From Balanoglossus misakiensis (Eukaryota; Animalia; Hemichordata): a DNA stretch of 64,000 nucleotides. A model generated the notes under the pieces. It did no database searches. It was not told where the DNA came from and saw nothing but the letters and a program-made list of their open reading frames with translations. Shown here piece after piece: positions 12,600-49,529 of the stretch; position 1 is the first letter of the stretch, and every line of letters begins with the position of its first letter. A program made the translations under genes and the position numbers. The stretch spans positions 12,183,337 to 12,247,336 of the forward strand of contig CM082586.2 in the NCBI GenBank assembly GCA_040954595.2. The letters run 5' to 3'.

Positions 12600-12839
12600 T
12601 TATTGTATTTCCCCATGTTTTAGGTCTCCATTTTGATTCACAATTTCATGTCAACAAGTTCACATTCTACCACCACATCACATCTACACATCAACTATCA
12701 CTGTGATAGAAGCTACCATTTTCAAGTTAAAGATATACAGTCACCGCAAATTTACATACACCCATATATGGCTGAAATAGATTATTTGCGGGTTCTAAAT
12801 AACATATGGCGGCGCTCTTTTTTTTCGCATGTGCCGCCC

Positions 12840-14319
12840 TACGGCGCGCCAAGTGTTTCAAAATTATTTATCATTATTTTATAGAAAATTGATGTCTTTT
12901 AACAAAAAAATACGTAAAAACAGAAAAAACTGATTGGTGGTTTAAAAAACGAGTGTAAAAAGTAATCCATCGTGGAGTAAAAAAAACAACAACAACAACA
13001 ACAAAAAACTAACACACACAGAAGAAAATCTCACCTGTTGTCAAAAAAAACCCACCAAGCTTACCAAAAAAACGTCCACAAGGCAGTTGCAAAAAAAAAA
13101 AATCACTAATTTGTCACAAAAAAAACACGCGCACATTTTTCACGAAAAACGCACACTTCACAAAAAATACACACAAAGTATTAAAAAGAACACTCTTTGA
13201 AAAAAAAGAGAGACTACAACTTTTAAAAATGCACACCCCCAGAACAAACAACACAGGCAAACATAGAAAAAACACGAACATGTTAGCCATAAAAAACGGA
13301 GATATTTGTCACCGAAAAAAAACCCCGCACTCATGTCACCCAAAAACTAACGGGCCACTTTAAAAAACGCAGATGCACTGAGGTTGCAAAAATAAGCACA
13401 TTTTTAATCCCCCGAAAAAAAAAACAGGCAATTTGAAAAAAAAACACACAGCAATTTGCAAAAAAAAAAAAAAAAAAAAGGAACATTTGTCACCCCCCAA
13501 AAAACATGCAATTTGAAAAAAAAACGCAGAGCAATTTACCAAAAAAAAAAAATATAGGAACATTTGTCACCCAAAAAAACCAGGCAATTTGAAAAAAAAA
13601 ACGCAGAGCAATTTGCAAAAAAAAATATAGGAACATTTGTCACCCAAAAAAAAACAAGCAATTTAAAAAAAAAAAAAAACGCAGAGCAATTTGCAAAAAA
13701 AAAAAATATAGGAACATTTGTCACCCAAAAAAAAAAAACAGGCAATTTGAAAAAAAAACGCAGAGCAATTAGCAAAAAAAAGAAAATATAGGAACATTTG
13801 TCACCCCAAAAAACATGCAATTTGAAAAAAAAAACGCAGAGCAATTTGCAAAAAAAAAAATAATAGGAACATTTGTCACCCAAAAAACAGGCAATTTGAA
13901 AAAAAAAACACGATATAAAATTTGAAAAAAAAAATATATAGGCACATTTGTCTCCCAAAATATTCAGGCAGATCCAAGTTGTAAAAAATGGTATATTTGT
14001 CATCCAAAAAATAAAATAAGCGTGTTTAAAAAAACGAGCATTCAGTTGTAAAAATAAATAATAGTCTTTAACAACTTGAAAAAAAAAACGGACGCATTTG
14101 AAAGAATAGCGTATGCGCATGCGCCGAAAAAAAAAATGAGTGAGAAATCCTGGGGAATAAATGCGCATGCGCAAAAAAAAAAAAAGTGAACAATCCTGGC
14201 TGAAAAAAAAAAAGTGAGAGATTTCGGTAGAGGAGTCTGGGTAATATTTGAAAAAAAAAAAACGGAGTCTGAAAAAAAGTTGAATTGAAGAAGAGAAAAG
14301 AAAGGGGAAACGCACAAAC
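12840..14319 (+). repeat. Left TIR (~1480 bp) with internal A-rich tandem repeats
   Basis: Reverse complement of 31908-33521. Repeated unit ggaacatttgtcaccc-An-caggcaatttg-An-cgcagagcaatttgc-An at ~13480-13960. Confidence 0.95.
14114..14173. promoter_or_regulatory. Pair of NRF1/EWG/P3A2-type palindromic sites in the left TIR (putative promoter of the cargo gene)
   Basis: TGCGCATGCGCC (14114-14125) and TGCGCATGCGCA (14162-14173) match consensus YGCGCAYGCGCR (the first with one terminal mismatch). A donor-like aag|gtgtgt follows at 14401. Confidence 0.6.
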
Positions 14320-15246
14320 AACTGCTAGGTGTCGAGATACGTGGGAGTGAACTCCGAAGCATCTTTTGGGCATCATCGTTATCAATCGACATCCACAAAA
14401 GGTGTGTATCATCTGTATGTTATATTTAAGTTTATTTTAACCGTGGATAGCTGCAGTGCATGATAAGTCGTTATTTTGCATGGATTGCATCATGTTTAAA
14501 AAATCATGTTATCGAGTGAACTTTCTTATTCTACTATTTCCGAAGTATAAAAGTTCAGTTGTGTCTTTTCGCATCGTTTCGCATATAGTTAGCTCTGCGT
14601 GACAGGGCTGTGTGACGAAGATCGACGCACGTTTTGAGTTCGGAATCGGCCGTTTTTGGTAAGGAAACCATACCGCAACAAATCCGTTGAGTTTCGCCAG
14701 GTTTGGCTATGTAGCTTAGCAGGGCTGTGATTGGAGGCGTAGCCGTTAACAACACACAGCCCTGGTAGCTAAATTCCCACCGCTGGAGTGATGTAACAGC
14801 ACAGGGGACTCTCCCTCCGCGATTTTGTTTGTTTGTTTGTTGTTGTTGTTGTTGTTGTTGTTGATGATGATAATACCCTAACACTTACATGTCAACAAAC
14901 CATATTTATTAATAAAGAAATATGTATTTGTTTATTATGCCAAAAATCACCATCATCATCATCATCAACAACAACAACAACAAACAAACAGACAAAATTG
15001 CGGAGGGAGAGTCCCCTGTGGTAACAGGGCAATGTGTTGCTTTGCGGCTTGCTGCCAACCGCCAGCGGTTGATGATAGTTTACCAAGACAATTAACTTAC
15101 ATTCTTGAATTGTATGTAGTATTTCACATAGAGATGCATGGCATATTTTCATGTGTTACATTTTAACATACAGTTATTCCTCATTATGGTCTTTGTGAAA
15201 TAATGTTTCATATATTTTTCATATCTTCTTTCCAAAAGTCATCAGA

Positions 15247-18200
15247 ATGGATAATACACAAAGGTCAGAAATACAAAGAACATTGGACTCAATGGACACA
15301 CTTGAAGTAAGAACAGCCGTAAACAATTTATTTAGGGGAAGAAGGCAGCCAGCTCAAGTACAACAATTACACAACACACCACATAACACCAGCCGCGCAC
15401 AAAATCCTAGGGACACATCAAGAAAAACTGCTGTATTTCCTCGATCCACAGCTGTATATTTACCCAAATCAAGAATGTACCATATGAAACTGTGTGTCCT
15501 AAAATATGACGAAGCAGTCATGATTGACACAACAGGAACTGTACATAACTGTGATGGAGACTGGCTTTTCAAAGGTGACATTTGCTTAGAAAGTAAATGG
15601 AATGATATACAGGTGGAGCGAGAAATACAGAACATGATAAGCCTTGCATATCCAAACTATATGGAAAAATTCAAGTTTGTGGATGTTCCACGCAAGGGTT
15701 CAGTCCAGTTACGAATCGTTTCCCGCTCATTCAAATATACGGCAAAAGCAGTATGGGATACAAGGAGTTTGAATAAAACCATCTATGTCATGCTTGATTC
15801 AGAACATGACCACACCCAGGAAACTGCCAGCATTCAGCATTATCAGAGGTGTTCAAATGTTGTAGATACATATAACAGTACAGTGACTGCAGACGCGTCC
15901 CTCCAGTCCCCATCCATGGTACTTGATGAAGTCACCACTGAGATTGAAGGAAATACTACTACTTTGCAAAGCCATGATGATGAAAGATATGCATGCACTA
16001 CCGTTGTCCAACCTCTTCAAACAGAAAATGATACAACTATACAGCCTTTAAGTTTCACATCTAATCGGGCCATTGAAGACACTGTGCCATCTCCAACAAG
16101 TGAATCAATAAGATTAACAAGTACAATACATGATGATACAACAATGCAGCTAGTGCCTTTAAGTTTCCCAGACAGTGTATCCAATCAGGCGAGTGAAGAC
16201 AGGCCATCTCCATCAAGTGAACCAATGGGATTAACAAGTACAACTCATGACACCCTATGCAATGGACCTCAATCAACCACTGGACAGAGTCCAATTGGTA
16301 GACAACACCACCAAATGGAAAGTACTGCCAAGAGACATAAAGGAAATCCAAAGAATGTAAGTATCCTGCTCAATAAGTCTTCTCATGTTGTTTAGTTTCA
16401 ATAAGAGAGCTGTGCTCAGGCTGATGACGTGCTTGTGAGTGAGTGAGTGAGTATGTTTATGTTTGATCAACTGTACGCATCACAATTTTTTAATACAGCT
16501 GCTTCAATTCAAAATTTATGAAAGATAAAAATGAAAATATGGAAACTATTTCTTTGAATATTGTCCTGCCCCCCCCCCCCTGACAAATTCCTAGGGGGTG
16601 CTAACATGTCAACAGGTGAACCCCTTTGGTCGAATTGTGTTAACATACAAGTGACATTGACAAAAGTCACATAAAGACAATTAATGCCATGATTTTCTTA
16701 TTTGTAGGAGTGCACACTGAGAGACATGATTTGTACTGATGGTGCAGAGCAGCTTGTAGATTACGGTAATGTGAACCTAAGTACTTATTCAGCAAAGACA
16801 CATTCATCCTTGTCAGAAAAAGTAAACATGCATGATCAAGGGAGATGTAGTCTGATGTAGATTGAGTCATGACTTTTGAATATAAAAAAATGACGTTCTT
16901 GCCCTCAGTAAAATTTACTTGAATTTGCAAGATAAGATCAGTTGGTGCACATGCATATATTGTTCAAATGTCCATTATGTACTAGAATCCAAATAGTAGT
17001 TTAGCTGTGCCGATCTTCAATAAAATAAAACCTAAGGTTTGATAGCACTCTGAGATCCCCTAATTTCTTATGTTCCAGCATAAATCAGTTGATCTCAGTG
17101 TGATCAAATCCTTAATACTTACCAGATTATGACCCCTCAACTTCTGACCTTTAGCCATTCTGCCATTACATGTAATTTCAATCATGCACTCTTGGCTTGT
17201 TAGAAATGTCTGTGCCCTTCTTTCCAAGAAAACAAGAAACTTTAAAAGGATGGTGACGGGGATATTGCCTTGTTGATAATTGAAACAAATTACTAGCTTC
17301 CACTATATGTAGTGTGTTTCTCACAACAGGTCTACCAAACCCTGGCAATTACTGTGCAGTCAATGCGGTGATACACCTTCTTGCATGCATAAAACCAATT
17401 ATGGAATGTTTATCTGAGGTGGTTTCTGGTGGTCCATGTATTGAAGCTGTCATTGAGGTATGTCAAACTTTTCATTTCAAGTTATGCAAATTGTCTTTAG
17501 GTATTGCAGACTAAATGGGCATTACGATGACCTACTGAGTCATATGATTAGGTCCCATTGGTATAGGCATATATACCATGGGACCTTATGGGATCGGTTG
17601 CGTCTGTATGTATGTATGGATGGATGGATGGATGGATGTATGGATGTATGTCTGTATGTCCGTCCACATCAAAAACTTGAAAACCGCTGCGCGTATCACC
17701 TCAATATTTGGTGTGTAGGTGCAGGCTGGGCTGTAGATGGGAGTTTGTCCAAACGAAGTTGCCAGGCCCAAAAATATGCAAAATAGCTGGAAAAATGTGA
17801 AATTTATCAAAACTCTGAAAGTCAACAACTACTTGTCAGATTGCTTTAAAAATTGGTATGCATGTACCACATGTCAACTTCACATCGACCTGTAAGTGTT
17901 AAGTTAATATAATGGATGTTTTATTTTTTATGAATTTTTTAGTCTTTTTATTAAATTTATACCTTTACTTATATCTCTATGGTTAAGCTATGTCCACGTC
18001 TTATTGTGGAATTCTGGTCTGTGCAATAGTCCTGTAATGTGACTGTCTATTGGTCAGTGAGCACAATGGGGCCAAAATAAAAGGCAAAATTTTGGGCTCA
18101 CCTGTAACACCTGCTTAACATATTAATTATGTGCTTGCCTAATTCCGGGCTAACTAATAGGGCTAGAGGTTTCGTTCTTGTGGGACATGGACCAGTATAG

Positions 18201-21200
18201 GGTCAAAATTTCTTGCCAAAATTTTGGGTGACCTCAGGTGACCTTTGACCTACTTTCCTATATCTCGGCATCCAGAGCAGGTACAGACTTGGCGTTTGGA
18301 GGGTTGGGACTAAAATTGAAAAGCCAACATATTGGTCACCTGTGACACCTGCATATCTCATTTATTATGTGCATACCTAATTCCAGGCTAACCAATAGGG
18401 CTATAGGTTTGGTTTTTGTTGAACATGGACCAGTATAAGATCAAAATTTATTGCCCAAATTTTGCATGACCTCAGGTGACCTTTGACCTACTGTATCATA
18501 TCTTGGCATCCAGAGCAGGTACAGACTTGGCGTTTGGAAGGTTGGGACTAAAATTGAAAAGCCAAAATTGGGGGTCACCTGTGACACCTGCATATCTCAT
18601 GAATTATGTGCATACCTAATTCCAGGCTAACCAATAGGGATATAGGTTTGGTTTTTGTTGAACATAGACCAGTATAAGGTCAAAATTTATTGCCCAAATT
18701 TTGCATGACCTCAGGTGACCTTTGACCTACTTTATCATATCTTGGCATCCAGAGAAGGTACAGACTTGGCATTTGGAAGGTTGGGACTAAAATTGAAAAG
18801 CCAAAATTTGGGGTCACCTGTGACACCTGCATATCTCATTAATTATGTGCATACCTAATTCCAGGCTAACCAATAGGGCTATAGGTTTGGTTTTTGTTGA
18901 ACATGGACCAGTATATTTGTCACCTGTGACACCTGCATATCACATTAATTATGTGCATACCTAATTCCAGGCTAACCAATAGCGCTATAGGTTTGGTTTT
19001 TGTTGAACCTGGACCAGTATAGGGTCAAAATTTCTTGCCCAAATTTTGCATAACCTCAGGTGACCTTTGACCTTCTTTTCCATATCTTGGCATCCAGAGC
19101 AGATATGCTTATTGCTATGTTGCTATGTGCTATGTTGGCTTGGGCCCGCTGCTTGCAGATCTGCTTGCAATGTCACCTGTAATTTTTATTCTGGTGTGTC
19201 ACTGTTTCCACATAATCCTCAAATGGGACCACAGTGTCCTTGACGCTATTTTTTTATAATTGTTTTCGCAATTTTCATGATAATTCATTATTTGTTATTA
19301 TTCTTGACGTTATGTTTCTGTCAGTACATGCAGTGAATTGGTTTGTATTCATTCAAGGTAATATGTCACCTTTGACAGGTATTTTGATGTATTATACTTT
19401 TTTTCATATAATTACAATTACAAAATTAACTTAACAAATACTCTCCATTACAAAAGATTAAAGCTTATGACTGTATTCTTTAAAAAATAGTTATTGTGTG
19501 CAGTCATAGCTTCTCACTTCTAATTTTACTGAAGTGAGCAAAGTTGTCTCTCACAGCATATAACAATTTACCTTCTTCTATGCCATAGGATGGGTTATAT
19601 ACTTGATATCAGTATATGGTAGTGTCAACATTATTAAGCCAAAAATATAATATCAGGAATTTTCATAAAACACTTTTTCATCTATCATTCCCATTTAAAT
19701 CTAGATGATATCTTTGATTGGTGAAGAGGATTGTTTGGCAGAATACGAAACAGCAGTAAGCCATTTCCTCAAGTGTATGCCACGGGATATGGCTGGCGGT
19801 GGGTATGACCCTGCAGAAGTGTTGGACGAAACCTTGAAAGTGTTGTGTACAGAAAATGAGGTACAGTATTTTCAATCTTGTCTGTGTTAATTGATTTTAG
19901 GTCAGTCTTACATTTGTTCTGATAATGTAACTGTGTCAAGTTTGTCGGACATGAACCAGCAAAAATTTATTTAAAAAGTTTTTGGTTACCTTAGGTGACC
20001 TTGACCATCTTTCTGATATCTCATTATCTGGCTCAGATACAGCTTTGGAATTCCGTGGGAACCACTTGGGCCCCACAAACCATGCCTGTAGATTTAGATT
20101 TTAGGTCCAATTTGATTTATATGTACATATATACCATGGGACCTTATGGGATTGGTTGCGTCTGTATGTATGTATGTATGTATGTATGGATGAATGTATG
20201 TCTGTCCACATCAAAAACTTGAAAACCGCTGCGTGTATCACCTTGATATTTGGTGTGCAGATGCAGGCTGGGCTGAAATGGGAGTTTGTTCAAATGAAAA
20301 ATTTGAATTTGGTCAAAACTCAGTGACTCAAGAACTACTGGTCAGATTGCTTTGCAAAGTGTGTGTATTTACTTTATTGAGTTCTTTGTAATTAGGCAGG
20401 AACCCCCTCCTGATATTTATACACACAGCAAATTCCTGCATGATAACATAACTGGCTAAGTTTTAAAGATGCCAGCTGTTCTATTTAGTGTATGTACAGT
20501 ACATATGCCATTGGCAGCTTATGGGTCAGTCAGTGTTTGCTCTTTGATCTCTCTCTTTCTCTATGTGTGTGTGTGTCTGTCTGTCTGTCTGTATATGGCC
20601 ATGTACTCTGGTGTAGACATTTTCTGGTGTAATCCCTCAATGGGACCACCGTGTCCTTGACGCGATTTTTTTTCTTCCAATTGATAGATTTTTTCATTCG
20701 TTTCATGTTTTATAGCATTTAGCACAGGTAATCCAGACAACTTTGGCAGGTACACGGAGACGGATCTGGATTTACGAGGATGAGGAATTTGAAGACGACA
20801 GTTATCGTCATATCCTTTGTTTGACCCTGCTGTTATAAGGGATTTAAGCTGTAACTGTTTGCTCTATTTTCAGTATTTTTGATCAGTGAATCAATTGCAG
20901 TTTTGTGGTCCTCTAACAACAGCATGCCATTTCTAGTACTGCACTAATAAACATAGGCTGTATGTGTGTAACGTAACATTGACCATTGTTATTGTTGACA
21001 AATAAATTCTTGTCCAGACTTTAATTACATTTTTGAATGTGGGGCATTTCTTCATACTATAAGGATTTGAACAAAAAACTGCAGGAGATAAACAAACCAA
21101 AATTACCTGTACTGAAAACATCGAAAAGTTACAGCTAATTTCCTGACTTAAGTATATATTTTTGTAACAAACTAGATTCTTCATGTTGACGAGACCAGTG

Positions 21201-24200
21201 TTCAAGTGCATATATATCCATAAATACTGTTGTACACAAACTCAGAAACTATGAATGGTTGTATGGTGATTTTATCACGCATATATAAAGTAAAAAGGTT
21301 GCTGCCCTGTGGTAGTAACTAACAGATGGTGAGATAATGTGTTTTCAAGAAGTAGGGGTGGGCATTAATTTGAAACTAAATTGGGCAGACCTTTTCAGGG
21401 TGTGATCATTTTATAGGGAAAAATATAACAAATGATACTGACATCATTGATTTTGCTGATGATTGTCAATTTAATATTCAGTTTTCCTATACATTACCTT
21501 GATACACCCCTGGTACGTTCTTCAACTAAACCCAGGATCATCAATTGACAGTATGCTAAATCATTTTCTCACAGAGAGAATGATTTATTGTTGGCGAGAC
21601 ATTCCTTCTAATGTGAAAGTCCAAATCAAAGACAGCATAGACGGAGCACCTGAACCTTCTGAACGTATGTTTTTTTATTTATTTGATTATACATGTACAC
21701 TTAGTTACTTTGCTATATGTTTCACTGTTACAAATATAGAACTGAAAATATAGTTAATTTTCATAATTTCTCTTTGAGGGGTCACTGTATAAATATTGAC
21801 ATTGTCACGGTATCAATTTACCCCCAGAGATACTACAGAAGTAGAAACCCTTAAATGAAAAAGTGATTGTCATTTACTCTACTTTAGGGAGAAGGGAGGA
21901 AAAGGAACATCATTTTGTTTGTTTTCTTCATTATAGATGACAGCGTAAAGCATGTTGACTTCTGGGTAACAGAACCCAATTTAATATGTTTGGGGATTCA
22001 CAGAAATGATGGTTATGGCAATAAGGTAGGTTTCATACTTTCTGTAGACTGATCATAAAAATGTTAATTATCAAGAGAAAGTGAAGTATAATTCATTGCA
22101 CCACAACATGTGACTTTTGCTGTAGTTGCTATAGGGCATAAGCTCCAGGTCATGAATGATTTGACAACTGAGATGAGACACAAGGATGCTGATCAATGCA
22201 CATACAGTAGCTGGGGCCAGTGCAGTATTGTCTTCTACATTTTTCTAAATACAGTCAACCAAAAGAATAAGTAGCTTCTTTTATCCTAGGTAGAGCAAAT
22301 GATTTAGGATAAATTTAAATTGTATACTATTAGTCTTTGAAAAGTTTGATGCTTTTGTGATATTACAGGACAATAGGAGTATAAAAATTCCGAGGTCGAT
22401 GACTGCTGAAGCACTGTTGTCTCCACAAGATTTCCCTGCATTCTGGTCACCCCCTGATATGGAAGTCACTGCCATAGTTGTGCATTCTGAAATAAGGGGC
22501 CATATAATGTTGTTAGTAAAGAAGGAGGCAGATACATGGTAAATATAGTCTGTTTGCTATGTTCTTCTTTGTCATCATTTCGTGTGTAAAGCTGTTAAAT
22601 ACTGAAAAGAATGAATAATCAATAACAGATCAGTTTTAGTGAAATTTAGTCTGTGAAGCCTCTTAATTGATGGTGCTCATGAGAACATGTATGTAATTGA
22701 CTGCAGAAAAGTGATAATTGATATAATTTTACAATTTCTTTCTTTGACAAATTACAATTAAAGATAAAGTTTGAGTCTCTATGCATGTTATATTAATGTG
22801 TTAAAACTTATCAAATTCCCTGCTATTGTTAACACATCTCATTTGTTTTTGTCTGTTCAGGGTCATGTATGATGATGACCATGTAACTGAATTTATCATG
22901 ACTTCTGCCATTCTGAAGTATCTACAAGGAGGCAATCAACAAGACAGTGTCAATATCCTTTTTCTCTTGAAACCAGAACAGACGCACGTTTCTTGTTACT
23001 TCATGTAACATGTTACAAAAAACTGTTGATTTTATAGTGGATAAAGTGATCAGTACACAATAATTTTTTGATGTATTTCACAAGTGTCTCAGTGCAGTCC
23101 ATTTTAGAAATTGATACAAGCTCTGCAGTTAATGTCTGTTTGTAGGTGATCACTATTACACAGTCCTTGTGTAAACATTAAACTACCGTACACTTTGAAA
23201 ATAAATAGAATATCAGTACTTTCAAAGAAAACTTTAAAGGCTGTAAAAGTGATGAACATGTAGTCATTCTAAAATGGAAAATAGAGTTTTGTTTGTCTTC
23301 CTTAATTACTCACTAATAGCTGTGTACTCAAAGGCCGAAATGTTCAGTCCTTACCCTTCAAAGCTGAGTGATGCTGTGAGGATATCTGCTAAAGAAAGGT
23401 ATTTTCCTGGTGACAAAACATCCAAACAAAAGTTTTAGTTGTATGCAAAAGGACAGAACATAACATCTTTCATTTTTTTGCACATTCTATGTAATCAGGC
23501 AATATGTGTTTACTGTATCAAATATTCTCATTCGACATTGTCTAGCATTCTAATATGTTACCACAGATCTGTATGTGTGAAGACTTTTCATGATATGTCC
23601 AATGTTTTTCTTCATTCTGGCAAGAGGTAAAGGTTATTGTCGTAATCAAAGCCTCATAATGTCACTGAGTGTGTACATGTACTATTGTACCACTTTTTTC
23701 TTTTATTTTCCCTGCAGACTTCAGGATTCTGTTGACTTGAGACAAATAAGTTGTGGATTAGGTAAATATTTATCATATGATAACAAACCATTTTTGTCCT
23801 TGCTGTTGAAAATGGAGGGATAAATGGCTTGTTTCTCATGGAAAAATGATAATATGTGACTTCTATATTTGATGTTGTTAATTTAGAAGATTTCCCTTCT
23901 GTACTGCTTAGGGACAGAGTTGATATGACAGGACGTGTTTTTTTTTCCTTTTAAAAGAGTTGAATAGAGAATTGGTCAGAAGACGAGTTGGGAGAAGACT
24001 AAAATCTGTTGTTGGGATGGAGGATATTAAGAAGAAAGTAGAAAAGCTTGCCATCTGCGCAATAAACAACAAAGCCCGGAGTACAATTAAGAAACAAGAA
24101 GAGGAGCCCCTAAATTTATTATTTTATGGGCCACCAGGCACAGGCAAAACTATGTTTGCTAGGTTGCTGGCAGGTATGTTTCTTTTTGTGTCCATTCAAT

Positions 24201-26468
24201 CTGTTACAATGTATAGAACTCATTAAACTTTAAAGCTGTAAATTTGTTTTCAATATTAAAGCTTCAGTATTTCTCGTTTTCGCATAAATTTTGTTTGAAA
24301 CGGCATCTTCAATTTCTAAAAGTACATGATAATTGATTCTGAATCTAACAGTTATCATGCCCAGCTCTGTTCATAAACACATACAATTTACAATATAACG
24401 AGTGAAGAATGACTTTCTGTCCGGACAGAAAGTCAGGCTCTGTGGACACACGTGACTACTGCGCATGCGCACTCAAATGTGAATCTATGCGGAAGAGGTT
24501 TGGTCGCCCCAAATCTAGCGCCTCAGCGAAGAAATGCGCACTAATTCGGCGAAATTCTGGGAAGATAACTATATGGGAGAAATCAGTCGATGGAACCAGA
24601 TCAAATCTGAAAATGGTCTGACATCAAATATCAAAGTGGCACGTTTGCTGATCGAGATGTACAACATTTCCGTTGTAAACAAACCCGCGCATCATTTCAA
24701 GTGTTACGGGCAATATTTACAGCTTGCATATAGCTACAGTTGCCCAAACCTTTCTTATATCTTCATTATGTAGTATTCCATGATGAATGTACAGGAAAAA
24801 CGGGCATTTTTCGATGATGAAAAATGGATACACACGAGAAATACTGGGGCTTTAACCTATAATTCTCAAATGTTTCAAAAAACACAATGCAAAAGTCAAC
24901 ACCCTTCGTAATTTAATGGTACAGTTTTCATTTCACAGAGTACCACTTTCACAGAACTGTGAGAAAATTAGTTTTACCTTCATTTTTATTACTTAATATT
25001 TTGTTCCAGGTGCAATATAAAGGATGATACCATAATAGGAAATCAAGTTTTATTCAATGTATAAATAGAGAGTTTAGGGAGTATTCCTAGTTTCTTTCCA
25101 CTTTGCATAGGCTGTACATGGTTATCTTATACCATAGGATTGTGTGTAAAAATGCAAGAAACCACCGATAAAATATTGTCATTTTCTTGAAATTGTCAGA
25201 AATAATTCAGAATGAGAATCAAAATCAATATCTGCAAAAATAAAATTTATGTCAGACCAGCTTGAGTCTTGGAGTCAGCTCATCTAAAAACTCCTACCAT
25301 GAAGATCTAAAGTGGGGAGAAGGGATGACTCAGCAATTTCCTTTTTTTGGGGGGTCATAAAATTGTCGCTAAAATTACCATTGCTTCTCCAATAATTTCC
25401 ATGTTTGTCTTTGAATCCACACGCACAATTGTCATATAACTAGATGAAATGTACACAGTGAAGTGGTGAGGGGGGGGGGGGGTATTTCCATATCATGTAA
25501 GTCAAAACCTAGTCTGGTAATTTCTATATTCTAGATACAGCAATCGGTGCAGTAAATTCAAAAGCATTTTTAGTCATGGTTCTACTTTGTGCTTTGCCAT
25601 TTCAGGATGCTTATATGATGTTGGTATATTAAAGGAAGAGAAAGTTGTTGAAGTACAGAGAGATAATGTTGTTGCTCAGTATCTGGGAGAATCAGAGAAG
25701 AAAATGAAGAAAAAGATCGAAGAGGCAGCTGGTGGATTGCTGTTTATTGATGAGGCATACTCACTATATAAAGGCAAATCTACGAAGGACTTTGGAGTTG
25801 ACATAATAAACACCCTTATGCACTATCTCACTGGTGACTGTATGAGAGATACCCCAGTATTTGTTCTTGCAGGATATAAGATGGAAATGGAGAAGTTGCT
25901 GTCAGCTAATGAGGGTCTCTTAAGAAGGTTCAGGGAACCATGGATCTTCCAGCCATACACATCTGAAGATCTGAAACAAATAGTGTGCAACAAGTTGCTA
26001 ATGCAGGGGTTCCAGTTTGAAAGTGGTACTGATGGTGAGATCCTGGCCCTGATAGAGGCTGTACCGCCTGGATTGCGTGTGAAGTTAAATGCAGGACTTT
26101 GTGGTCGCATTATCGACTACATGAAGGATAGCATCGATGATCGGGTTTGTAATCCATCCAACACGACAGAACTGTTACTTGTAAAGCTAGAAGACATACA
26201 CAGTGTCAAAGAACAGCTGAGTGGGCAGTGGGTTGATGATCCCAAAACACACACAACCATTGGGATACAGACTGATCATGTGGAACTGACAGATAGTACT
26301 ACAGAGATGATATCTATGAAATGCGTGAATGTCAATACACAGACAACTGGCCATGTGGAAACTGCACATACACATGCACAGACTGTGATGTTGGGTTCTC
26401 TGAACAAAGAGACGCAGACTGACCGACTGGCGAAACTGATGATCAAGGGACACAGACATATCATGTAA
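15247..26468 (+). CDS. Multi-exon transposon cargo gene: N-terminal domain + S/T-rich linker + USP-type cysteine protease + CbbX/SpoVK-family AAA+ ATPase + TQT tail (~1,090 aa)
   Basis: Exons 15247-16356, 16708-16765, 17330-17457, 19705-19860, (20400-20454 candidate), 21482-21664, 21937-22025, 22369-22538, 22861-~22994, 23320-23398, 23718-23761, 23958-24173 and 25606-26468. All are phase-compatible AG/GT except two uncertain donors (20454, ~22994). Motifs: Cys box GLPNPGNYCAVNAVIHLL; His box AIVVHSEIRGH...WVMYDDDHV; Walker A GPPGTGKT; AQYLGES; Walker B LLFIDEAY; VLAGY; NEGLLRRF. Confidence 0.8.
17548..19160 (+). mobile_element. Helentron/HINE-like non-autonomous element in a cargo-gene intron
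   Basis: The 5' ttaggtccca...tgggacc hairpin is followed by a (GTAT/GGAT)n microsatellite and ~4.5 tandem ~240-bp core units (18095-19100). A related 5' end lies at 20101-20360 and an inverted copy ends at 54343. Confidence 0.6.
24260..24851. mobile_element. Kolobok-like MITE in the intron splitting the AAA domain
   Basis: ttaa|agcttcagtatttctcgt ... acgagaaatactggggct|ttaa. Confidence 0.8.
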
Positions 26469-26544
26469 AACTGAGGTCAACAATGGGACAGAGACTAGTT
26501 TGACTTTCTATTATGTCTCACCAGACAGGTACAATTATCAAGAG

Positions 26545-27415
26545 CAATCTGATTAAAATTAGATGTAGTGTTGGGCGCCATATTTACTTTTGCTGATTCT
26601 TGGCTGTTCTGTTAAAAAGAGACGCCCACACTACATCTAAACCTATGCCATAGAAGATCTCAATCAGAGCGGTAGTCTCGGTTACCCAGACGCCTTTGCT
26701 CTTCCGATGCTCTCCAGAAAAGGGTCTGGGGAAATACTATTGAAAGCTTTGTAAAACAAAATGGCCGATGTCAGGATTTTGATCATCGCCTGCTTGGCTG
26801 AGCTGTCAGTATGACCTTGGTCACTGATTCTCGACAATGTGTGATTATTTGTCATATCTTCATATCAAGAGACCGGTACTTGTTGGTTGATGCGAAAGGC
26901 AAAAGGCGTCCTCTGTTAGCATTGTTGGAGAAATTATACGAAATATCTTTAGTAGACGATTGTCGAAACTATTGCAGTGACCCGGGTCATACTGACAGCT
27001 CAGCCAATCAGGCGATGATCAAAATCCTGACATCGGCCATTTTGTTTTACAAAGCTTTCAATAGTATTTCCCCAGACCCTTTTCTGGAGAGCATCGGAAG
27101 AGCAAAGGCGTCTGGGTAACCGAGACTATCAGAGCGGTTGTTTAGAAAACTGGAGGTGTGGAAAAACAAACAAACTTGAACAATAGAAGTTAGTTTCCAG
27201 CGCGTGGCCAGTTCCGAAGTGTTAGGAAAGCCGCTCTGTGATTGGTCGAATGGATCCATTTGCCAAAACTAGATGTTCTATGGCATAGGTTCAGAATGAT
27301 GTAGTGTGGCACGTACACCAAGAACAGCCACGGCAGAGAACAGAACAGCCAAGTCAAAGACAGAGAACAGAACAGCCAAAGACAATGCCAAACTTATCTG
27401 ATTTTAACCAGATTG
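26545..27415. mobile_element. MITE with 9-bp TSD (MULE-like) in the cargo-gene 3' region
   Basis: TIR caatctgattaaaattagat / atctgattttaaccagattg; flanks tatcaagag and catcaagag. Confidence 0.7.
26673..27128. mobile_element. Nested foldback MITE with TAG..CTA ends and 9-bp TSD (AcademH-like)
   Basis: ~154-bp near-perfect TIRs starting tagtctcggttacccagacgcc; exact TSD tcagagcgg at 26664-26672 and 27129-27137. Confidence 0.88.
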
Positions 27416-28532
27416 CATCAAGAGCAGAGAGGTGGTGAACAATTATCCCTTTCACCTCTCTGGTGCCGTCCAAATCCATTGTTCTCTATGGTAAGGTTGG
27501 ACCTCTAGAGGGAACTGGGGGTGAAAGGGTTAAGGTCATATTGTAATTCACTTACAAGCATTTAAATATTCTTATATGAAAATGAGTATTATTCTTATAT
27601 GCAAAAATAGCTCTATACTATTATAGCTCCTATCACAGCCGTTTTAGTGATCTTTTTCACTCGTTTTTTTGTTTCAAAGCTGTTTTATTATTCCTTAAAT
27701 CATGCTAGAAATAGGTGATCATTTTAATGTGGATGTAATTTTGTTGATTAAAGCACCACATGGTTCTGACTCAGAAAAAGGTTTTTCTTTGGTTACTTGA
27801 ATAGCTGTAACTTTTGACGTTTTTTTTTAAATTATTTAGCTTACCAATGCAACATTGACGTGTATACAGAAGCATTATTATTATAAATTGCATTCAACTT
27901 GGGACACAAAAGCATTTATCAAAAATAACATCGGTCATTACACATGCACTGGCTATGTTGACAACCAGAACACGGCCATATGTAGTAGAACAAGAATCTG
28001 GTAATACACAGAAGCAGAATACGGATAAAACAGTAAAATGTTACTACTAATGTTGCTTTAAAATGGCATAAAGTACTGACCTGTGGTAGGGGAAAAAATT
28101 GGCATTTTCTGAAACCTTGGTGTAAATGGATTGATAAAGGCACTACTTGTACACACCAGTGGACTTTAGTATTTCCATTTATTGACAAAAATCTTCAAAC
28201 CAGGTCAAAATGTAGGTGTCAATCTAAACACTGTCCCTGTTATTTTTTTATGTACAAGAAAACAAAGTAACTGCTACCTATATGATTTTGTGGAATACCA
28301 AGTCTGACATCAATAAATGTTTACAAGTTTTTTCTATGGTGTATTGAGCCATTAATAAAGTGTGTTTTTTTTTTTGCAATGATGTCTTGTTGCTGTAATC
28401 AGAGCACATTCTTCAGTTCAGCATTGCCAGTTAAAAAGATACATTAAAATGTCAATGAATAATAACAATGTCGCAAACATTTTCATTTCTTCTTATCTCT
28501 TTGATAAATGGCCAAAGTACATTACATGTTAA

Positions 28533-28871
28533 AGCCTCTGGAGCTGCCACTTTTGCATTATTTTCATGAATTAATTTAAATTGGTCCATCAAAATAAGCT
28601 TGCTGTTAGGTATAAACAAACATCTTATCCATGCCTGATCATGGCTGTATATAGCGATCTGAAAACGCCATGTATGAAAACGGTGCCGCACCGATTTAAT
28701 CAGCTTCCATACAAACAGTACGAGGCTATATTTGTATATGTCGCCAAGAGATGACAAACTGATGCAAATGCAAGTAATATGGCTTAATGGTGAGGATTTT
28801 AGAGGATAGGGAATATATTTGAAGTATTTTACTGTGGAAAAAATATGCAAAATTTGGCAGCTATAGGGGCT
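28533..28871. mobile_element. Kolobok-like MITE, same family as 12295-12599 (inverted)
   Basis: ttaa|agcctctggagctgccac ... tggcagctataggggct|ttaa; the interior is the reverse complement of 12330-12425. Confidence 0.8.
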
Positions 28872-30549
28872 TTAAAGGTATACAGTCTCCGATGCAAATT
28901 AAGCCACATGTACCAGCATGGAAAGTGGAAATTTAGCCACTAATATCTCTTGTTTTCAGTAGGTAGCCATGTGAAAAGAAGTGTGCCACTTCATCATGGT
29001 TATCAAAAGATTTATACACACCCTTGTAACCATACATGGGTAACCGGTATGTGTAAATTGGAGGTGATTGTATTTCTTTATGGATATTAAAATGACATTT
29101 GTCTGATTAAGGAACATGCTCTAGTGTAAATATCAATACCCTTTTCATCACTTGCTGCTAATGGATCTATCCTTTCCTGTAGAGTCTGAAAACATTGCTC
29201 ATAATTTGACAATTCAAATGTTGGTGATAGCATTTCATTATTTGATTCTTCATCACTGTTGACAGTGATGTATTCTTCATCACTGTTGACAGTGATGTCA
29301 GTTTCCACTCCATAAGTGGCATAATCTATGTTCTCTGGATCTAACAGTTCTCTGATAGCAGTTTTATCAGAATTTTTGAATGCAGTAACACTTTGCAGCC
29401 ACAGCTGATTCGGACTCAAATTGTGTTCTGTTTGCAATCTATGTTCATTCCAGCCTTTCCTAAAAACTGTCAGTGAATAATTTATACGAGGAAGAAAAAC
29501 AAAATGAAGACACAGTATCTCTATAGGATTATCAGGATTTAAAAGACCCTGGCATTCCATCTGTAGAAAAACATCACGATAGTATTCCAAACAACATTTA
29601 AATGTATCTTGATGTAATCGTTCAATTCTTTGATTATAAATTGATGATCCAACAATGTGTGAACCTCTGTTGTCTCCACGGTGTGCCAGCATGAAAGCTG
29701 CAACCGTTGTATTTTCCATCCCATAATCAGATCTGACACGGGACGGAATGCCATATTCTTGCACTGCACCAAGGAAACCATCTAAAACAGTTGATGCCAT
29801 CTTGTTGTTGGCAGCAATGAGGTAGACAACTACTCTAGAATACCCATCTATTCCACCATGAACATATAGTCCCCATCTTTGTAATTTTTCCAGGCCATCT
29901 GCAAAAAATGAAATATGTATTAAGCCTTATGAAACTCTTGATAAATGTACACGTAGATCAATTCTATTGGCAAGGAGGACTATACATCACACACTTATTA
30001 ATTAAGTTCAATATTCAGAAAAGCAGCAATCCACATACATAATTATGGTAAATGTTTCACTAAGAAATAAAATCAACATGGAAAAACAGCATCATGGCAA
30101 TGATGCTTAAGCTAGCTTCAGATTTAGTTTGGCATTCAGTTTTGGTTTCGTGGGATGCAGGCCCACTTCATAAAACTGCATTTCCAGCTTCCTCACCCAA
30201 ATTAGTCTTAAGTATAAAAAGAATATGCTGAAAGACGAGTACACATGATCAATTGCTCAATGTATGACATGTACAACATTTTAGCACTTTAAAGTTATAT
30301 TTAGATGTGGAAAATTATTTTTTTTATCACATCAAATATGTACCTCAGAAGTGCATAATTGATTGGAATGTAAATTAAATATGAACACGGCCAAATGTGA
30401 TCAAAATATTTTTCATTCTAAATAGGGTTTCCTAAACTACAACTATACAAATCAGCTCTTGATGCACAATTACTCTCCGTTACTCGAAACCGAAGATGTA
30501 TCTGTATCAGACTGAGTCTAACTTAAGCATCTTTATGACAACTGTTCAA

Positions 30550-30844
30550 TATTGAGTATTATATTATACCAGTATATTGATGGTGTAAATCACGCTATTT
30601 GATTGGTCGAGACACGACACGTGACCATGGTATATTAGCCATATACCACAGTCATATATCTTAGTCAAAGAAAATGCCTTTTTAAAATGTTTTATGCAAA
30701 GTTTCAATATACTGGCATAATATAATAGCAATAAAACACCCCCAGCCATGGTATACCACGAGATTTTGACCAGTTCGTGCGTATATGTCGTGAACTGGTC
30801 AAAATCTCGTGGTATACCATGGCTGGGGGTGTTTTATTGCTTAA
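30550..30844 (-). mobile_element. Hairpin-bearing non-autonomous element (Crypton-like, tentative) in the transposase intron
   Basis: ~50-bp palindrome agcaataaaacacccccagccatggtataccacgagattttgaccagttc at one end; family copies at 60661-60975 and 62926-63248. Confidence 0.6.
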
Positions 30845-30934
30845 ATACAATAGTTCCATTTGAAAACATGCAGTGGTTTTAAGATTTCACTGACACGCAT
30901 ACACCTACATAGATAGATAAATACATAAATAGAT

Positions 30935-31065
30935 ACATGATACATACATATTTACATGCATGCATGCATGCATGCATGCATACATACATACATACATACA
31001 TACATACATACATACATACATACATACATACATACATACATACATTACATGCATGTACGTACATA
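30935..31065. repeat. (TACA)n/(TGCA)n microsatellite
   Basis: Direct inspection. Confidence 0.95.
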
Positions 31066-31907
31066 CTATCTATCATAATAACTTTGTGTAATGTAAACTC
31101 TTACCAATATGCCATAAACTTTGTGCTGCCGCCACATTGTACACACCATGCCTTTTACTTTTCATTCTCAAGAGTGGCCAACGCAGGGCTCGTTCAAAAG
31201 GTTCAATCCTCTGGAGACTTTCTCTTATTCGCTGTCTTTGAACGGAAACTTTCATAGATCTCAGAATACCTTCCACGATTCTTTCTCCGCAATGCTTAAA
31301 AGTCGATTCCTTGATTCTGCGTATGTGCATGTCAAGATCTGCATCACTAATGGGATTGTACTTATCTGTGAAATCATACCCTAATGATTTCAATCTTCTC
31401 CATAATGTTTGACGAGATATTTGGAGCATTTCTGAGATATCTTTCATTTTGAACCCGTATTCGATAAATAATTGTACCTTGTCATCAATATCATATGGTG
31501 GACGTCCAGGTTCACCAGTTCGAATAGTTTCAGTCTCAGATAGTCCACAGTTCACATCACGAGACGTATTAACATTCCCAATCGTAACTCAAGAGCGAGG
31601 ACTGTTTCCAGAGTTAGAGCTCCATATTTCCAAAACAGATTGCAACGCAATATGTACAGAGTTCAAGCAATCCAGTAACAAATGAATGTCCTGCACAGAA
31701 ACGGCCATTACATGGTGCTGCACCGCTTCTCTTATGTTCAGTGTGTAACGTATCATAGAGACAGTTCTCTCGACCATGTTACACACCACTCGCCGGTCAT
31801 TTAGACCAGACGGTAACCTGTTTCTGTGGTCTGGAACAAGTATCTTCACTTCCTTCACGAAGGAATCCCATAACGGCGCCATGTTTGCTTCTCTTCGACC
31901 CTTATCG

Positions 31908-33521
31908 GTTTGTGTGTTTCCCCTTTCTTTTCTCAACTTATTTTCAGACTCCGTTTTTTTTTTCAAATATTACCCAGACTCCTCTACCGAAATCTCTCAC
32001 TTTTTTTTTTTCAGCCAGGATTGTTCACTTTTTTTTTTGCGCATGCGCATTTATTCCCCAGGATTTCTCACTCAATTTTTTTTTCGGCGCATGCGCATAC
32101 GCTATTCTTTCAAATGCGTCCGGGGTTTTTTCAAGTTGTTAAAGACTATTATTTATTTTTACAACTGAATGTTCGTTTTTTTAAACACGCTTGTTTTATT
32201 TTTTGGATGACAAATATACCATTTTTTACAACTTGGATCTGATGGAATATTTTGGGTGACAAATGTGCCTATATAATTTTTCTTTTTCAAATTTTATATC
32301 GTGTTTTTTTTTCAAATTGCCCGTTTTTTGGGGGTGACAAGTGTTCCTATGTTTTTTTTTTTTTCAAATTGCCTGTTTTTTTTGGGGTGACAAATGTTCC
32401 TATATTTTTTTTTTTTGCAAATTGCTCTGCGTTTTTTTTTTAATTGCCTGGTTCTATTTTTTTTTTTTTGCAAATTGCTCTGCGTTTTTTTTTTTAAATT
32501 GCCTGTTTTTTTGGGTGACAAATGTTCCTATTATTTTTTTTTTGCAAATTGCTCTGCGTTTTTTTTTTAAATTGCCTGGTTCTATTTTTTTTTTTTTTTT
32601 TTTGCAAATTGCTCTGCGTTTTTTTTTTTAAATTGCCTGTTTTTTTGGGTGACAAATGTTCCTATTATTTTTTTTTTGCAAATTGCTCTGCGTTTTTTTT
32701 TTTTTAAATTGCCTGTTTTTTTGGGTGACAAATGTTCCTATTATTTTTTTTTGCAAATTGCTCTGCGTTTTTTTTTTAAATTGCCTGGTTCTATTTTTTT
32801 TTTTTTTTTGCAAATTGCTCTGCGTTTTTTTTTAATTGCCTGTTTTTTTGGGTGACAAATGTTCCTATTATTTTTTTTTGCAAATGCTGTGCGTTTTTTT
32901 TTTCAAATTGCCTGTGTTTTTTTTTCGGTGGATTAAAATGTGATTATTTTTGCAACCTCAGTGCATCTGCGTTTTTTTTTAAGTGGCCTGTTAGTTTTGG
33001 GGTGACATGAGTGCGGGTTTTTTCGGTGACAAATATCTCCGTTTTTTATGGCTAACATGTTCGTGTTTTTTCTACGTTTGCCTGTGTTGTTTGTTCTGGG
33101 GGTGTGCATTTTTTTCAAGTTGTAGTCTCTCTCTCTCTCTTTTTTTTTTACAAAGAGTTTTCTTTTTAATACTTTGTGTGTATTTTTTGTGGGGGTGAAG
33201 TGTGCGTTTTTCGTGAAAAATGTGCGCGTGTTTTTTTTGTGACAAATAAGTGATTTTTTTTGCAACTGCCTTGTGGACGTTTTTTTTTTGGTAAGCTTGG
33301 TGGGTTTTTTTTTGACAACAGGTGAGATTTTCTTCTGTGTGTGTTATTTTTGTTTTTTTTGTTTTTTTGTTTTTTTACTCCACGATGGATTACTTTTTAC
33401 CCTCGTTATTTTTTAAACCACCAATCAGTTTTTTGTATTTTTTTACGTATTTTTTTTGTTAAAAGACATCAATTTTCTATAAAATAATGATAAATAATTT
33501 TGAAACACTTGGCGCGCCGTA
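31908..33521 (-). repeat. Right TIR (~1614 bp)
   Basis: Mirror of the left TIR; longer because of extra internal repeat sub-units (32250-32930). Confidence 0.95.
32038..32097. promoter_or_regulatory. Mirror pair of NRF1-type sites in the right TIR (putative transposase promoter)
   Basis: TGCGCATGCGCA (32038-32049) and GGCGCATGCGCA (32086-32097), 155-215 bp upstream of the transposase ATG at 31882. Confidence 0.6.
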
Positions 33522-34696
33522 GCCACCCACTGAAAATCCGTGATTGGCTAGATCTCAAGTTAACGTGGTAACTGTAGCTAAATTTCCATAGGTGACCGTA
33601 TACCTTCTCTACACGTACTGTTGACTGACACACACAATCCCCTAACTCTCAACACATACATACAAAGACCCAACCCACTCCACGTGTAGTCTCCATGGCC
33701 ATGCCACCTAGCCCGCAGGCTACCACATCCAAAAGCATACACACACACAATACATGTCAATTTTACATGAGGAGCGGCTCATGTTCTTTATTCTAAACTT
33801 GAATGATATATAAACTGAAAATTTACCCCGCACCAAAACCCAGAGATAAAACCCTTTTTTCAGGATAAGGGGAAAAAACTCTGGGAAAGCGTAGGTAATT
33901 CACCAACTTTACAAAAAATTCTATTTCTAAATTCATGCCTCTTTCTGCCTCACAGAAAGAAAATGTTGGAAGTTTTACAATACCAAGCAAAATTTGGTAT
34001 TGTAGGTCTAAACTAAAACTGACAAAAATTAATATTTCATCTCTGAATGAATAAAGTGTTCTCAATAAATCATAATAGGTTTGGTGTTACACTGTTCTAA
34101 ATGTAGCATTTACAATTAAAGGGCAACTACCTGTAATTTTTGGTACAGAATTGTTAATATTGACAAATGCATTCAATTGACTTGAATACAATTGTTAACA
34201 ATAACAATGCTGATTATGCATACCAGAAATCGTGGTGCATACATAGACCAAAATTACGTACTGAAAAATTTGTCAAATGTAACACATAGTGGACCTTAAT
34301 GTCTATAAGAATGAATCTCAAACAATGTCACGTGAACGTAAAATATTAAATTTCATATTAAAATACAAAAAGAATAAAGTCATACTATTGAACACTGCAC
34401 ACAGCAGTTGAGTCTAAAGTGACTAATGTACTGGGGGCGATCCCAAACAGAAACGGGTCATATAGTCATAAATATCCCCCACCCTTATAAAGACCCCTTT
34501 CTCCTTGGGATGGCTCCTGTGATAAAATGAAACTGTGCTAGACTTGAAGAGATATACGCAGGAAACCTCATCAGTTACAGCCACTGCGAAGACTTCATTG
34601 ATGATCCCCCCAAATTGGGGGGGGGGGGGGGGGGGGAATGTAGATGAATGTTGAAATCTTCAAAAGCAAATTGAAAGTGTTTTACTGTCAAAAAAG

Positions 34697-46700: not shown

Positions 46701-48470
46701 GACACAAAAATTTGTGATCACTGACATCCCCCTCCCCCCATCATTATCAATTAGAACACTTGGTTTCACACAGGTTGTTTGTTTACGATTGTGAAACACT
46801 GTTCACTTAATATGGTGCAGCATTTTAATACTGCAGGTTAGTTTAAAGTTTTCATATCAAGCTACAGTACCTGACACAAAAATGTGTGATCACTGACATC
46901 CCCCTCCCCCCATCATTATCAATTAGAACACTTGGTTTCACACAGGTTGTTTGTTTACGATTGTGAAACACTGTTCACTAAATATGGTGCAGCATTTTAA
47001 TACTGCAAGTTAGTTCAAAGTTTTCATATCAAGCCACAGTACCTGAAACAAAAATTTGTAATCACTGACACCCCCCTCCCCTGAGACCCCCCAACCCCGA
47101 TCATGATGAACACCTTGGTTCACACAGGTTGTTTGTTTACGATTGTGAAACACTGTTCACTTAAGAACACAAGCATAGTCAACTTATTAATGATAAAACA
47201 CATTATGGTGCAGCATTTTAATACTGCAGATTAGTTGAAGGTTTTCATATCAAGCTACAGTACCTGAAACAAAAAATTGTAATCACTGACACCCTCCACC
47301 CCTGACAACCCCCACCCCTGATCATTACCAATTAGAACACCATGGATTCACACAGGTTGTTTGTTTACGATTGTGAAACACTGTTCACTTAATTAACACA
47401 AGCATAGTAAAATTATTAATGATAAAACACATCATGGTGCAGCAATTTAATACTGTAGATTAGTTCAAGGTTTTCATATCAAGCTACAGTACCTGAAACA
47501 AAAAATTGTAATCACTGACACCCTCCACCCCTGACAACCCCCACACCCGATCATTACCAATTTGAACACATTGGTTTCACGTTGGTTGCTTGTTTACGAT
47601 CGTGAAACACTGTTCACTTAATTAACACAAGCATAGTAGAATTATTAATGATAAAACACATCATGGTGCAGCAATTTAATACTGTAGATTAGTTCAAAGT
47701 TTTCATATTAAGCTACAGTACCTGAATCAAAAATTTGTAATCACTGACACCCCCCCCACACCCGATCATTACCAATTACATTTGTAGAACACATTGGTTT
47801 CACACAGATTGTTTGTTTATGATCGTGAAACACTGTTTACTTAATAACACAAGCATAGCAAAATTATTAATGATAAAACACATCATGGTGCAGCAATTTA
47901 ATACTGCACATTAGTTCAAAGTTGTCATATCAAGCTACAGTACCTGAAACAAAAATTTGTAATCGCTGACACCCCCCACCCCTGACAACCCCCACCCCCG
48001 ATCATTACCACACTGGCTGTTTGTTTACGATTGTGAAATACTGTTCACTTAATAACACAAGCTTGGTAAAATTATTAATGAAATTAATCACATCATGGTG
48101 CAGCATTTTAATACTGCAGGTTAGTTCAAAGTTTTCATATCAAGCTACAGTACCTGAAACAACAATTTGTAATCGCTGACACCCCCTACCCCATTATTAT
48201 GAACACATCGGTTCACACAGGTTGTTTGTTTACGATTGTGAAACACTGTTCACTTAAGAACACATGCTTGATAAAATTATTAATGAAATTAATCACATCA
48301 TGGTGCAGCATTTTAATACTGCAGGTTAGTTTAAAGTTCTCATATCAAGCTACAGTACCTGACACAAAAATTTGTAATCACTGACAACCCCCTTCCCCCA
48401 TCATTATCAATAAGAACACCTTGGTTTCACACAGGTTGTTTGTTTACAATAGTGAAACACTGTTCATGTT
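43770..48470 (+). repeat. Satellite array, ~210-235-bp monomers plus ~171-bp deletion variants, ~22 copies
   Basis: tcaagctacagtacctga recurs ~22 times from 43780 to 48345. Confidence 0.96.
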
Positions 48471-48652: not shown

Positions 48653-48744
48653 CTGAGAGCATGACTGCACCCAGCAGATCACCCATTTACAAAGCTTTGT
48701 GTCATAACATGTGAGTATGATATTTTTATTTTTATAAGTATCAC

Positions 48745-48779
<35 letters not shown>

Positions 48780-49130
48780 CCATCATCATCATCAGTATCA
48801 CCATCTAAACCATCATTATCACCATCTAAACCATTATTATCACCATCACCATCAGTATCACCACCATCACCATCAGTATCACCATCATCACCATCAGTAT
48901 CACCATCACTACCATTATTATCACCATCATTATCACCATCACCACCATTATTATCACCATCACCACCACTATTATCACCATCATCATCACCATCACCACC
49001 ATTATTATCACCATCATCACCATCACCACCATTATTATCTGAGGGCATGACTGCACCCAGCAGATCACCCATTTACAAAGCTTTGTGTCATAACATGAGA
49101 GTATGATATTTTTATTTTTATAAGTATCAC

Positions 49131-49174
<44 letters not shown>

Positions 49175-49529
49175 CCATCATCATCATCAGTATCACCATC
49201 TAAACCATCATTATCACCATCTAAACCATTATTATCACCATCACCATCAGTATCACCACCATCACCATCAGTATCACCATCATCACCATCAGTATCACCA
49301 TCACTACCATTATTATCACCATCATCACCATCATTATCACCATCACCACCATTATTATCACCATCACCACCACTATTATCACCATCATCATCACCATCAC
49401 CACCATTATTATCACCATCATCACCATCACCACCATTATTATCTGAGAGCATGACTGCACCCAGCAGATCACCCATTTACAAAGCTTTGTGTCATAACAT
49501 GTGAGTATGATATTTTTATTTTTATAAGT

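Follow-up and report, generated by a model that had tools for sequence, protein, structure and literature searches.

A DNA transposon in Balanoglossus misakiensis carries, as cargo, a predicted gene for an AAA protein whose C-terminal tail contains four QT-anchored motifs of the LC8-binding type, three of which fit position rules for LC8 sites. We favor, at a probability of roughly 60%, the reading that this tail is a multivalent LC8 docking strip, in which LC8 dimers would zip neighboring tails together and stabilize an oligomer of an accessory enzyme. The window referred to below is the whole stretch of 64,000 nucleotides that was analyzed, and positions are counted from its first letter. 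Papers are cited by PMC number from excerpts of their text.

QT-anchored motifs in the C-terminal tail

The original prediction placed four LC8-type motifs in the tail that follows the AAA lid, and all four were present as read, spread over 57 residues of the ORF at 25521-26468(+) (Table 1). LC8 recognizes a KxTQT-type consensus, as in ELM, and the GIQVD sequence of nNOS is another LC8-binding motif. Among the four motifs, only NKETQTD fitted the K-x-TQT pattern, and a search for the nNOS GIQVD motif in the excerpt of PMC3078936 gave no match. The sites were scored with position rules coded after Jespersen 2019 (PMC6607443), a simplified version that is distinct from LC8Pred. The rules ask for T, I or V at position -1 and T or V at +1, and they bar an internal proline, a hydrophobic residue at +2 or -4, an aromatic residue at -2 and a small residue at -3. 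Three of the four tail sites passed. The exception, AHTHAQTV (motif 3), has A at -1 and the hydrophobic V at +2 and could be occupied only through cooperativity. Motif 4 agreed at six of seven positions with the Rapali consensus as quoted in an abstract. The prediction of four canonical LC8 sites therefore stood for three good matches and fell for AHTHAQTV, a poor one, all of these being matches of sequence.

The anchoring glutamines are spaced 24, 13 and 12 residues apart, which leaves linkers of 16, 5 and 4 residues between the 8-residue motifs. The 78 residues of the tail include only these four glutamines, each followed directly by T. One DNA contig of run X1, from which the assembly may itself derive, covered 24827-26581 with no substitution and one gap.

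Table 1. Positions of the motifs, exons and transposon features in the window
Feature	Position	Strand	Remarks
C-terminal tail	26232..26468	+	78 aa + stop; predicted unfolded (pLDDT 24-29); without F/W/Y
Motif 1 TTIGIQTD	26253..26276	+	fits position rules; IQT anchor
Motif 2 VNVNTQTT	26325..26348	+	fits position rules; TQT anchor (NVNTQTT = 26328-26348)
Motif 3 AHTHAQTV	26364..26387	+	poor; fails rules (HTHAQTV = 26367-26387)
Motif 4 LNKETQTD	26400..26423	+	canonical K-x-TQT-D; best of the four (NKETQTD = 26403-26423)
Last exon, AAA core and lid, CbbX/SpoVK/EccA type	25606..26231	+	Pfam AAA E 3e-7
Exon with Walker A GPPGTGKT	23958..24173	+	Pfam AAA E 3e-6; collinear with P0122 N-terminus
Predicted exon 1: unnamed N-terminal domain, then S/T-rich linker	15247..16356	+	ORF
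Predicted exons 2-9, USP (peptidase C19)-like region	16708..23004	+	motif order read by eye; splice model
Cys box GLPNPGNYC	16708-16765 and 17330-17457	+	Pfam UCH below cutoff
His-box-like exon	22369-22538	+	read by eye
W-x-x-x-DD exon	from 22861	+	read by eye
IS3EU/GingerRoot-like DNA transposon, about 20.7 kb	12840..33521		TIRs, termini TACGG..CCGTA
Left TIR, about 1.5 kb, internal ~75-80 nt tandem units	12840..14319	+	self-match
Right TIR, about 1.6 kb	31908..33521	-	self-match
Left target duplication GCCGCCC, 7 bp	12833..12839	+	flank letters and contigs
Right target duplication GCCACCC, 1/7 mismatch	33522..33528	+	flank letters
Transposase gene, two predicted exons 31882-31105 and 29898-29087	29087..31882	-	rva_4, HTH

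The motif cluster was compared with four backgrounds and exceeded chance against each, although the tests are post hoc because the region was chosen for its motifs. When the residues of the tail were shuffled, four loose anchors arose in 43 of 200,000 trials and at least three rule-passing sites in 28 of 200,000, and dinucleotide shuffles of the tail DNA produced four anchors in 2 of 20,000. The six-frame translation of the window, in which stop-free stretches of at least 30 aa add up to 63,386 residues, contained no other stretch with more than two anchors per 60 aa. None of 269 other fetched AAA proteins (350,143 residues) exceeded two loose anchors or one rule-passing site per 60 aa.

The motifs were expected to lie beyond the folded AAA domain, and this was supported by an AlphaFold2 model, a shallow one built on a three-sequence alignment: a mostly confident lid (exon residues 121-200) formed a block with pLDDT 59-89, and exon residues 211-286 were coil with pLDDT 24-29. 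The low pLDDT of the tail is weak evidence of disorder, since with three sequences even the AAA core stayed below 50. The tail had no match among PDB sequences up to E 10.

Motifs 1 and 2 are followed by an HVE stretch common to both, in DNA as well as in protein, so the two are probably not independent events, and the common stretch looks like an old duplication. All four anchors are encoded by CAG followed by ACT or ACA. The shared stretch and the uniform codons both speak for an alternative that we consider unlikely yet serious, namely that the motifs are a by-product of short duplications and CA/GA-rich simple sequence in a dispensable tail, perhaps that of an unexpressed passenger gene; LC8 may then bind one peptide in vitro, and the binding would have no role. 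Against such an origin, the tail is not a simple repeat, an (ACACAG)2 run is absent from the entire window, and Q-T was retained at all four sites while their flanks diverged.

Relatives of the cargo protein

Two close relatives, both Ptychodera flava RefSeq models, were detected in protein searches: XP_070556525.1 (P0122) and XP_070559078.1 (P0255). In the representative-protein search they were the two close relatives among the best 150 of 16,027 matches, which were otherwise crowded by multi-AAA proteins; among the best 120 of 373 matches of the last exon, multi-AAA proteins likewise dominated, most of them bacterial or without a name. A profile of the lid alone recovered the same two relatives together with two weak matches and found no related locus in metagenome contigs, and a region search with P0255 matched only P0255 itself. 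As the protein searches were word-limited, more relatives probably exist. In a FastTree analysis of 90 AAA domains, the closest non-redundant ones of 778 extracted, the cargo protein, P0122 and P0255 formed a clade of three with a support of 1.0.

P0255 is 41% identical to the cargo protein and carries a TQT array that starts just past the lid, with 15 TQT triplets (11 non-overlapping) in tandem units of 19-22 residues. Its last 105 residues (537-641) proved to be the TQT repeat in a shifted frame, with 20-22 of 22 residues compatible versus at most 11-13 in shuffles. The array is thus longer in the DNA, and there is probably a frameshift within the RefSeq model, as its repeat register suggests. 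Only three registers of P0255 passed the coded LC8 position rules, and the repeat unit is unlike the cargo tail except for the QT anchor. The closest relative, P0122 (78% identical), stops about 13 residues past the lid, before any anchor, so that the tail is missing in one of the two relatives. On the expected conservation of the QT anchors the two relatives are divided: P0255 has an array in the same place, and P0122, which may be a truncated copy or gene model, has none; as the protein sequences read, the array is shared with one of the two relatives by position and not residue for residue.

The relatives pull in both directions on whether the motifs are a by-product of duplication. P0122 is without the tail, and the P0255 array is a young, frameshifted tandem repeat made of ACACAG-like DNA that readily spells TQT; both favor such an origin. 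P0255 also has C in place of G in Walker A and, with its frameshift, may be a decayed copy. On the other side, QT arrays stand directly past the lid in two lineages that are only 41% alike.

S/T-Q is the consensus of ATM/ATR-type kinases. The tail could accordingly be read as an S/T-Q cluster that these kinases phosphorylate in response to DNA breaks and that would tie the enzyme to transposition damage, and T-Q does occur at motifs 2 and 4 and repeatedly in P0255; moreover, a reference title names ASCIZ, which is a multivalent LC8 client, as an ATM substrate. However, T precedes Q at two of the four anchors and follows it at all four, a pattern of the LC8 anchor rather than of the kinase consensus, and we regard a kinase-target cluster as hardly probable.

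The transposon and its cargo gene

The AAA protein was predicted to be transposon cargo, and its gene indeed lies between the TIRs of an element with an rva_4 transposase and defined ends. Inverted self-matches paired 12839-13941 with 33522-32454 (86.7%) and 13415-14319 with 32797-31908 (83.9%). In element-free contigs, the left flank continues into the letters after the right copy, with a loose end at 12839, and the element end meets other flanks at 12840 in contigs of runs X1 and X2, which derive from one sample and are possibly the source of the assembly. These empty-site contigs and foreign flanks fix the boundary exactly, with a 7-bp duplication that has one mismatch. Other insertion flanks, present as loose ends, finish in GCCGCAG and GGTGCAG, which suggests a GC-rich target preference. 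The flanks at 12735-12839 and 33522-33560 place the element within another high-copy repeat. Contig depth over the element interior was about 310-340 in X1 versus 31-42 in several low-depth contigs; as support for several near-identical copies this was set aside as a hint only, since depth does not equal copy number.

The transposase matched Pfam rva_4 (PF24764, E 9e-67), which we take to be a marker of IS3EU transposases, and gave weak HTH matches; its DDE core motifs are WHID, RSDYG and NQRIERL. The hallmarks of IS3EU/GingerRoot elements are TA..TA ends, a GC-rich duplication of 6 bp (rarely 7-8) and passenger genes (PMC10045372, PMC12730594, PMC6839031). The element described here likewise has an integrase-like DDE domain without HHCC, an N-terminal HTH, a GC-rich target and TA..TA termini, TACGG..CCGTA, that conform to the TAYGG..CCRTA of fungal IS3EU (PMC10045372, PMC6839031, PMC12730594). 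Its cargo gene is oriented opposite to the transposase, like the fungal alpha-kinase and TET/JBP passenger genes in the excerpts on IS3EU. The GC-rich 7-bp duplication is inside the 6-8 range of PMC6839031 but off the modal length, the usual duplication being 6 bp, with 7 bp in 5 of 77 GingerRoot elements. The excerpts also give 100-150 bp for the TIRs and 3.9-12.9 kb for the length of Selaginella GingerRoot elements, as against 1.5-1.6 kb and 20.7 kb here. These TIRs, about 10 times those of Selaginella, are foldback-like, with tandem units of ~75-80 nt and A-rich runs.

An in-frame TGA is present at 31589-31591(-), at codon 98 of the predicted transposase, some 30 codons ahead of the HTH region. 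The contigs that cover this stop, from X1 and X2, are each one letter off the window, and since that sole difference is apparently at 31833, the TGA seems common to the run consensus. It could be the mark of a non-autonomous family, or there could be a downstream start or an unseen intron. The interrupted frame makes an autonomous element less likely and leaves its family membership unaffected. The transposase query found no related locus in viral contigs.

The cargo gene can be assembled from an ATG at 15247 by joining about 12 GT-AG exons in frame, and in this hand-made model all of the 12 splice combinations that were tried yielded a single open frame of about 1,050-1,090 codons. The final exon begins at a splice acceptor at 25606, inside the ORF that holds the motifs. 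The stop in the transposase adds to the case for motifs that arose as a by-product in a dispensable tail, and the fact that the ~12 exons still join in frame counts against it. A MITE-like insertion at 26673-27128, with 154-nt arms that are 98% complementary, lies about 200 nt past the cargo stop codon, and high-depth repeats occupy introns at about 17500-19200, 20000-21000, 24300-24830 and 30557-30890.

The predicted domain order is an N-terminal domain, an S/T-rich linker, a USP-like region, an AAA domain of the CbbX/SpoVK/EccA1 type and the tail. Predicted exon 1 had no Pfam match; the N-terminal domain (15247-15830) resembles unnamed sponge and cnidarian hypothetical protein clusters (Atlas 0.92-0.94) and is possibly a module common to the cargo genes of related elements. 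For the USP-like region, the Cys-box, His-box and W-x-x-x-DD exons follow one another in the order of the USP boxes, as read by eye. With exons scanned singly, the Cys-box exon matched Pfam UCH at E 0.035, or 14.1 bits versus a cutoff of 23.9, and the His-box exon had no Pfam match. USP21 was the top PDB match, at E 1. Under the splice model, one chain would join a USP-like protease region and an AAA domain; the RefSeq models of both Ptychodera flava relatives are without the USP region.

A deubiquitinase-type domain on a transposon has a parallel in the VTD and OTU deubiquitinases of Helitrons, which differ in fold class (USP-like here, below cutoff) and in transposon class, and for which the excerpt of PMC9741609 reports neither an AAA domain nor an LC8 tail. 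Another alternative is that the tail acts as an LC8 sink or decoy against germ-line transposon silencing, with the USP-like region shielding element proteins from degradation. Fly transposon silencing requires LC8/Cut-up, which dimerizes the piRNA complex PICTS via two Panoramix TQT motifs (PMC7861614), the Helitron-encoded deubiquitinases are active and are proposed protectors of transposition proteins (PMC9741609), and TET/JBP genes on IS3EU elements are proposed to counter silencing (PMC12730594). A decoy is nonetheless very unlikely in our judgment: Panoramix homologues are known from insects only, according to the excerpt of PMC7861614, and LC8, being highly expressed (PMC6607443), would hardly be depleted by an element protein of low copy number.

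In the AAA domain, both Walker motifs (A and B), the pore loop and the arginine finger were all found. The last exon contains Walker B LFIDEAY, pore-loop QYLG and RRF, matched the solved structures of EccA1 (E 7e-21) and CbbX (E 7e-20) and had an Atlas EccA1-family score of 0.96. The R at the sensor-2 position (G-N-A/G-R) is absent and replaced by G; the position is R in 79 of 87 other domains and G in 8 of 87. The missing arginine was considered as proof of a dead ATPase and was rejected as such, as those 8 relatives likewise have G. A fold search ranked CbbX first, but at E 1.8e-3 and from a low-confidence model. The CbbX structure 3zuh has six chains, and by analogy with known families the cargo AAA domain may make a CbbX-like hexameric ring and hydrolyze ATP. 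As in CbbX, SpoVK and EccA1 (PDB 3zuh, 3syk, 9lur), Walker A and B, the pore-loop tyrosine and the arginine-finger region align, at E about 1e-20. The cargo differs from them in being an intron-containing animal gene with a divergent lid, G or similar at sensor 2 and an added QT tail, and no such tail was found in the 269 other fetched relatives.

Elsewhere in the window, a reverse transcriptase fragment at 512-1357(+) (Pfam RVT_1, E 5e-10) lies outside the transposon, and an ORF at 53609-53998(+) with a weak Arrestin_N match (E 0.003) is probably a host-gene exon. A satellite with a unit of about 229 nt, in about 22 copies, spans 43770-48400 and is followed at 48680-51000 by a long CAT/CAC-rich simple repeat with a strong negative GC skew.

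A possible LC8 clamp on an AAA oligomer

The LC8 homodimer has two symmetric grooves, in which it binds two chains in parallel (PMC6607443). Dimeric display of the motif increases the affinity for LC8 by orders of magnitude, and display on a protein that is already oligomeric increases it strongly (PMC3078936); short linkers let weak LC8 sites fill cooperatively (PMC12803091, PMC10046861). According to the excerpts of the latter two papers, linkers measure 4-5 residues in Nup159, 16 in fly ASCIZ and 3-41 in ASCIZ constructs, and the linkers of 16, 5 and 4 residues in the cargo tail fall within the spacing of these known LC8 clients.

In the mechanism that we propose, a CbbX-like AAA ring would show several tails side by side, and such pre-dimerized display, as known families suggest, would make weak LC8 sites bind tightly. 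Motifs 1, 2 and 4 of two adjacent chains would be occupied by LC8 dimers, and motif 3 at best cooperatively, and two to four dimers would form a short ladder between the tails that stabilizes the predicted oligomer. The product, as drawn from the splice model, would be an accessory enzyme of the element that remodels and deubiquitinates. In this picture LC8 is a clamp and not a connection to the dynein motor.

The original prediction had LC8 recruited for oligomerization or trafficking. We prefer the oligomer role, itself predicted, and trafficking is disfavored by PMC6607443. A transport role would have the tail link the protein, perhaps with the transposition complex, to dynein via LC8 for delivery to the nucleus or germ cells. 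LC8 is a dynein subunit long viewed as a cargo adaptor, and viral peptides bind it, those of HPV E4 and rotavirus VP4 among them (PMC6607443, Table 2). However, both LC8 grooves are used symmetrically and LC8 is now accepted as a dimerization hub and not an adaptor, according to the same paper, and the transposase pieces carry no QT anchor, which makes dynein transport very improbable to us.

The preferred reading, LC8 as a clamp between tails, is favored by the three of four rule-passing sites, the rarity of the cluster, the aromatic-free tail that is predicted to be unfolded, the linker lengths, the P0255 array and the open splice frame. It is weakened by P0122 being without the tail, the possible decay of P0255, the duplicated stretch and the frequent failure of motif matches to bind: in PMC6607443, binding was seen for 7 of 19 matrix-predicted peptides and for 16 of the 47 phage-display peptides that were tested. 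The weak disorder evidence, the sub-cutoff USP call, the hand-made splice model and the transposase stop weaken it further.

ASCIZ, Nup159, KANK1 L2 and Panoramix likewise have several QT 8-mers in a C-terminal region predicted to be disordered (PMC5963919, PMC10046861, PMC12803091, PMC7861614) and, as the excerpts describe them, share with the cargo tail a mixture of strong and weak sites and linkers of 4-16 residues. They differ in being host proteins with measured binding, whereas the cargo is a transposon passenger, with the motifs beside a ring-type AAA domain and known from sequence. Taken separately, tails with several LC8 sites, passenger genes on IS3EU elements and deubiquitinases of transposons (PMC9741609) are all known already. 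A USP-like or AAA cargo is not mentioned in the excerpts of the IS3EU papers (PMC10045372, PMC6839031, PMC12730594). Searches of open-access titles and abstract starts brought up no relevant paper on an LC8 client encoded by a transposon or on a cargo of the CbxX/SpoVK type, and the combination of a USP-like region, a CbbX-type AAA domain and a QT tail on an IS3EU element did not surface in these searches either.

LC8 arrays in themselves are a well-known type of feature, which limits the surprise. If the binding is real, a cut-and-paste transposon would join viruses and the fly silencing complex in using the LC8 hub, and LC8 would act on an AAA ring instead of a simple dimer. A bolder version, which we think quite unlikely, is that a protease-AAA ring encoded by IS3EU elements in animals resembling acorn worms co-opts LC8 via independently expanded QT tails, either to assemble or to hinder LC8-dependent transposon silencing. 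Were that co-option true, the hub of the fly piRNA anti-transposon pathway would have been turned to a transposon's use.
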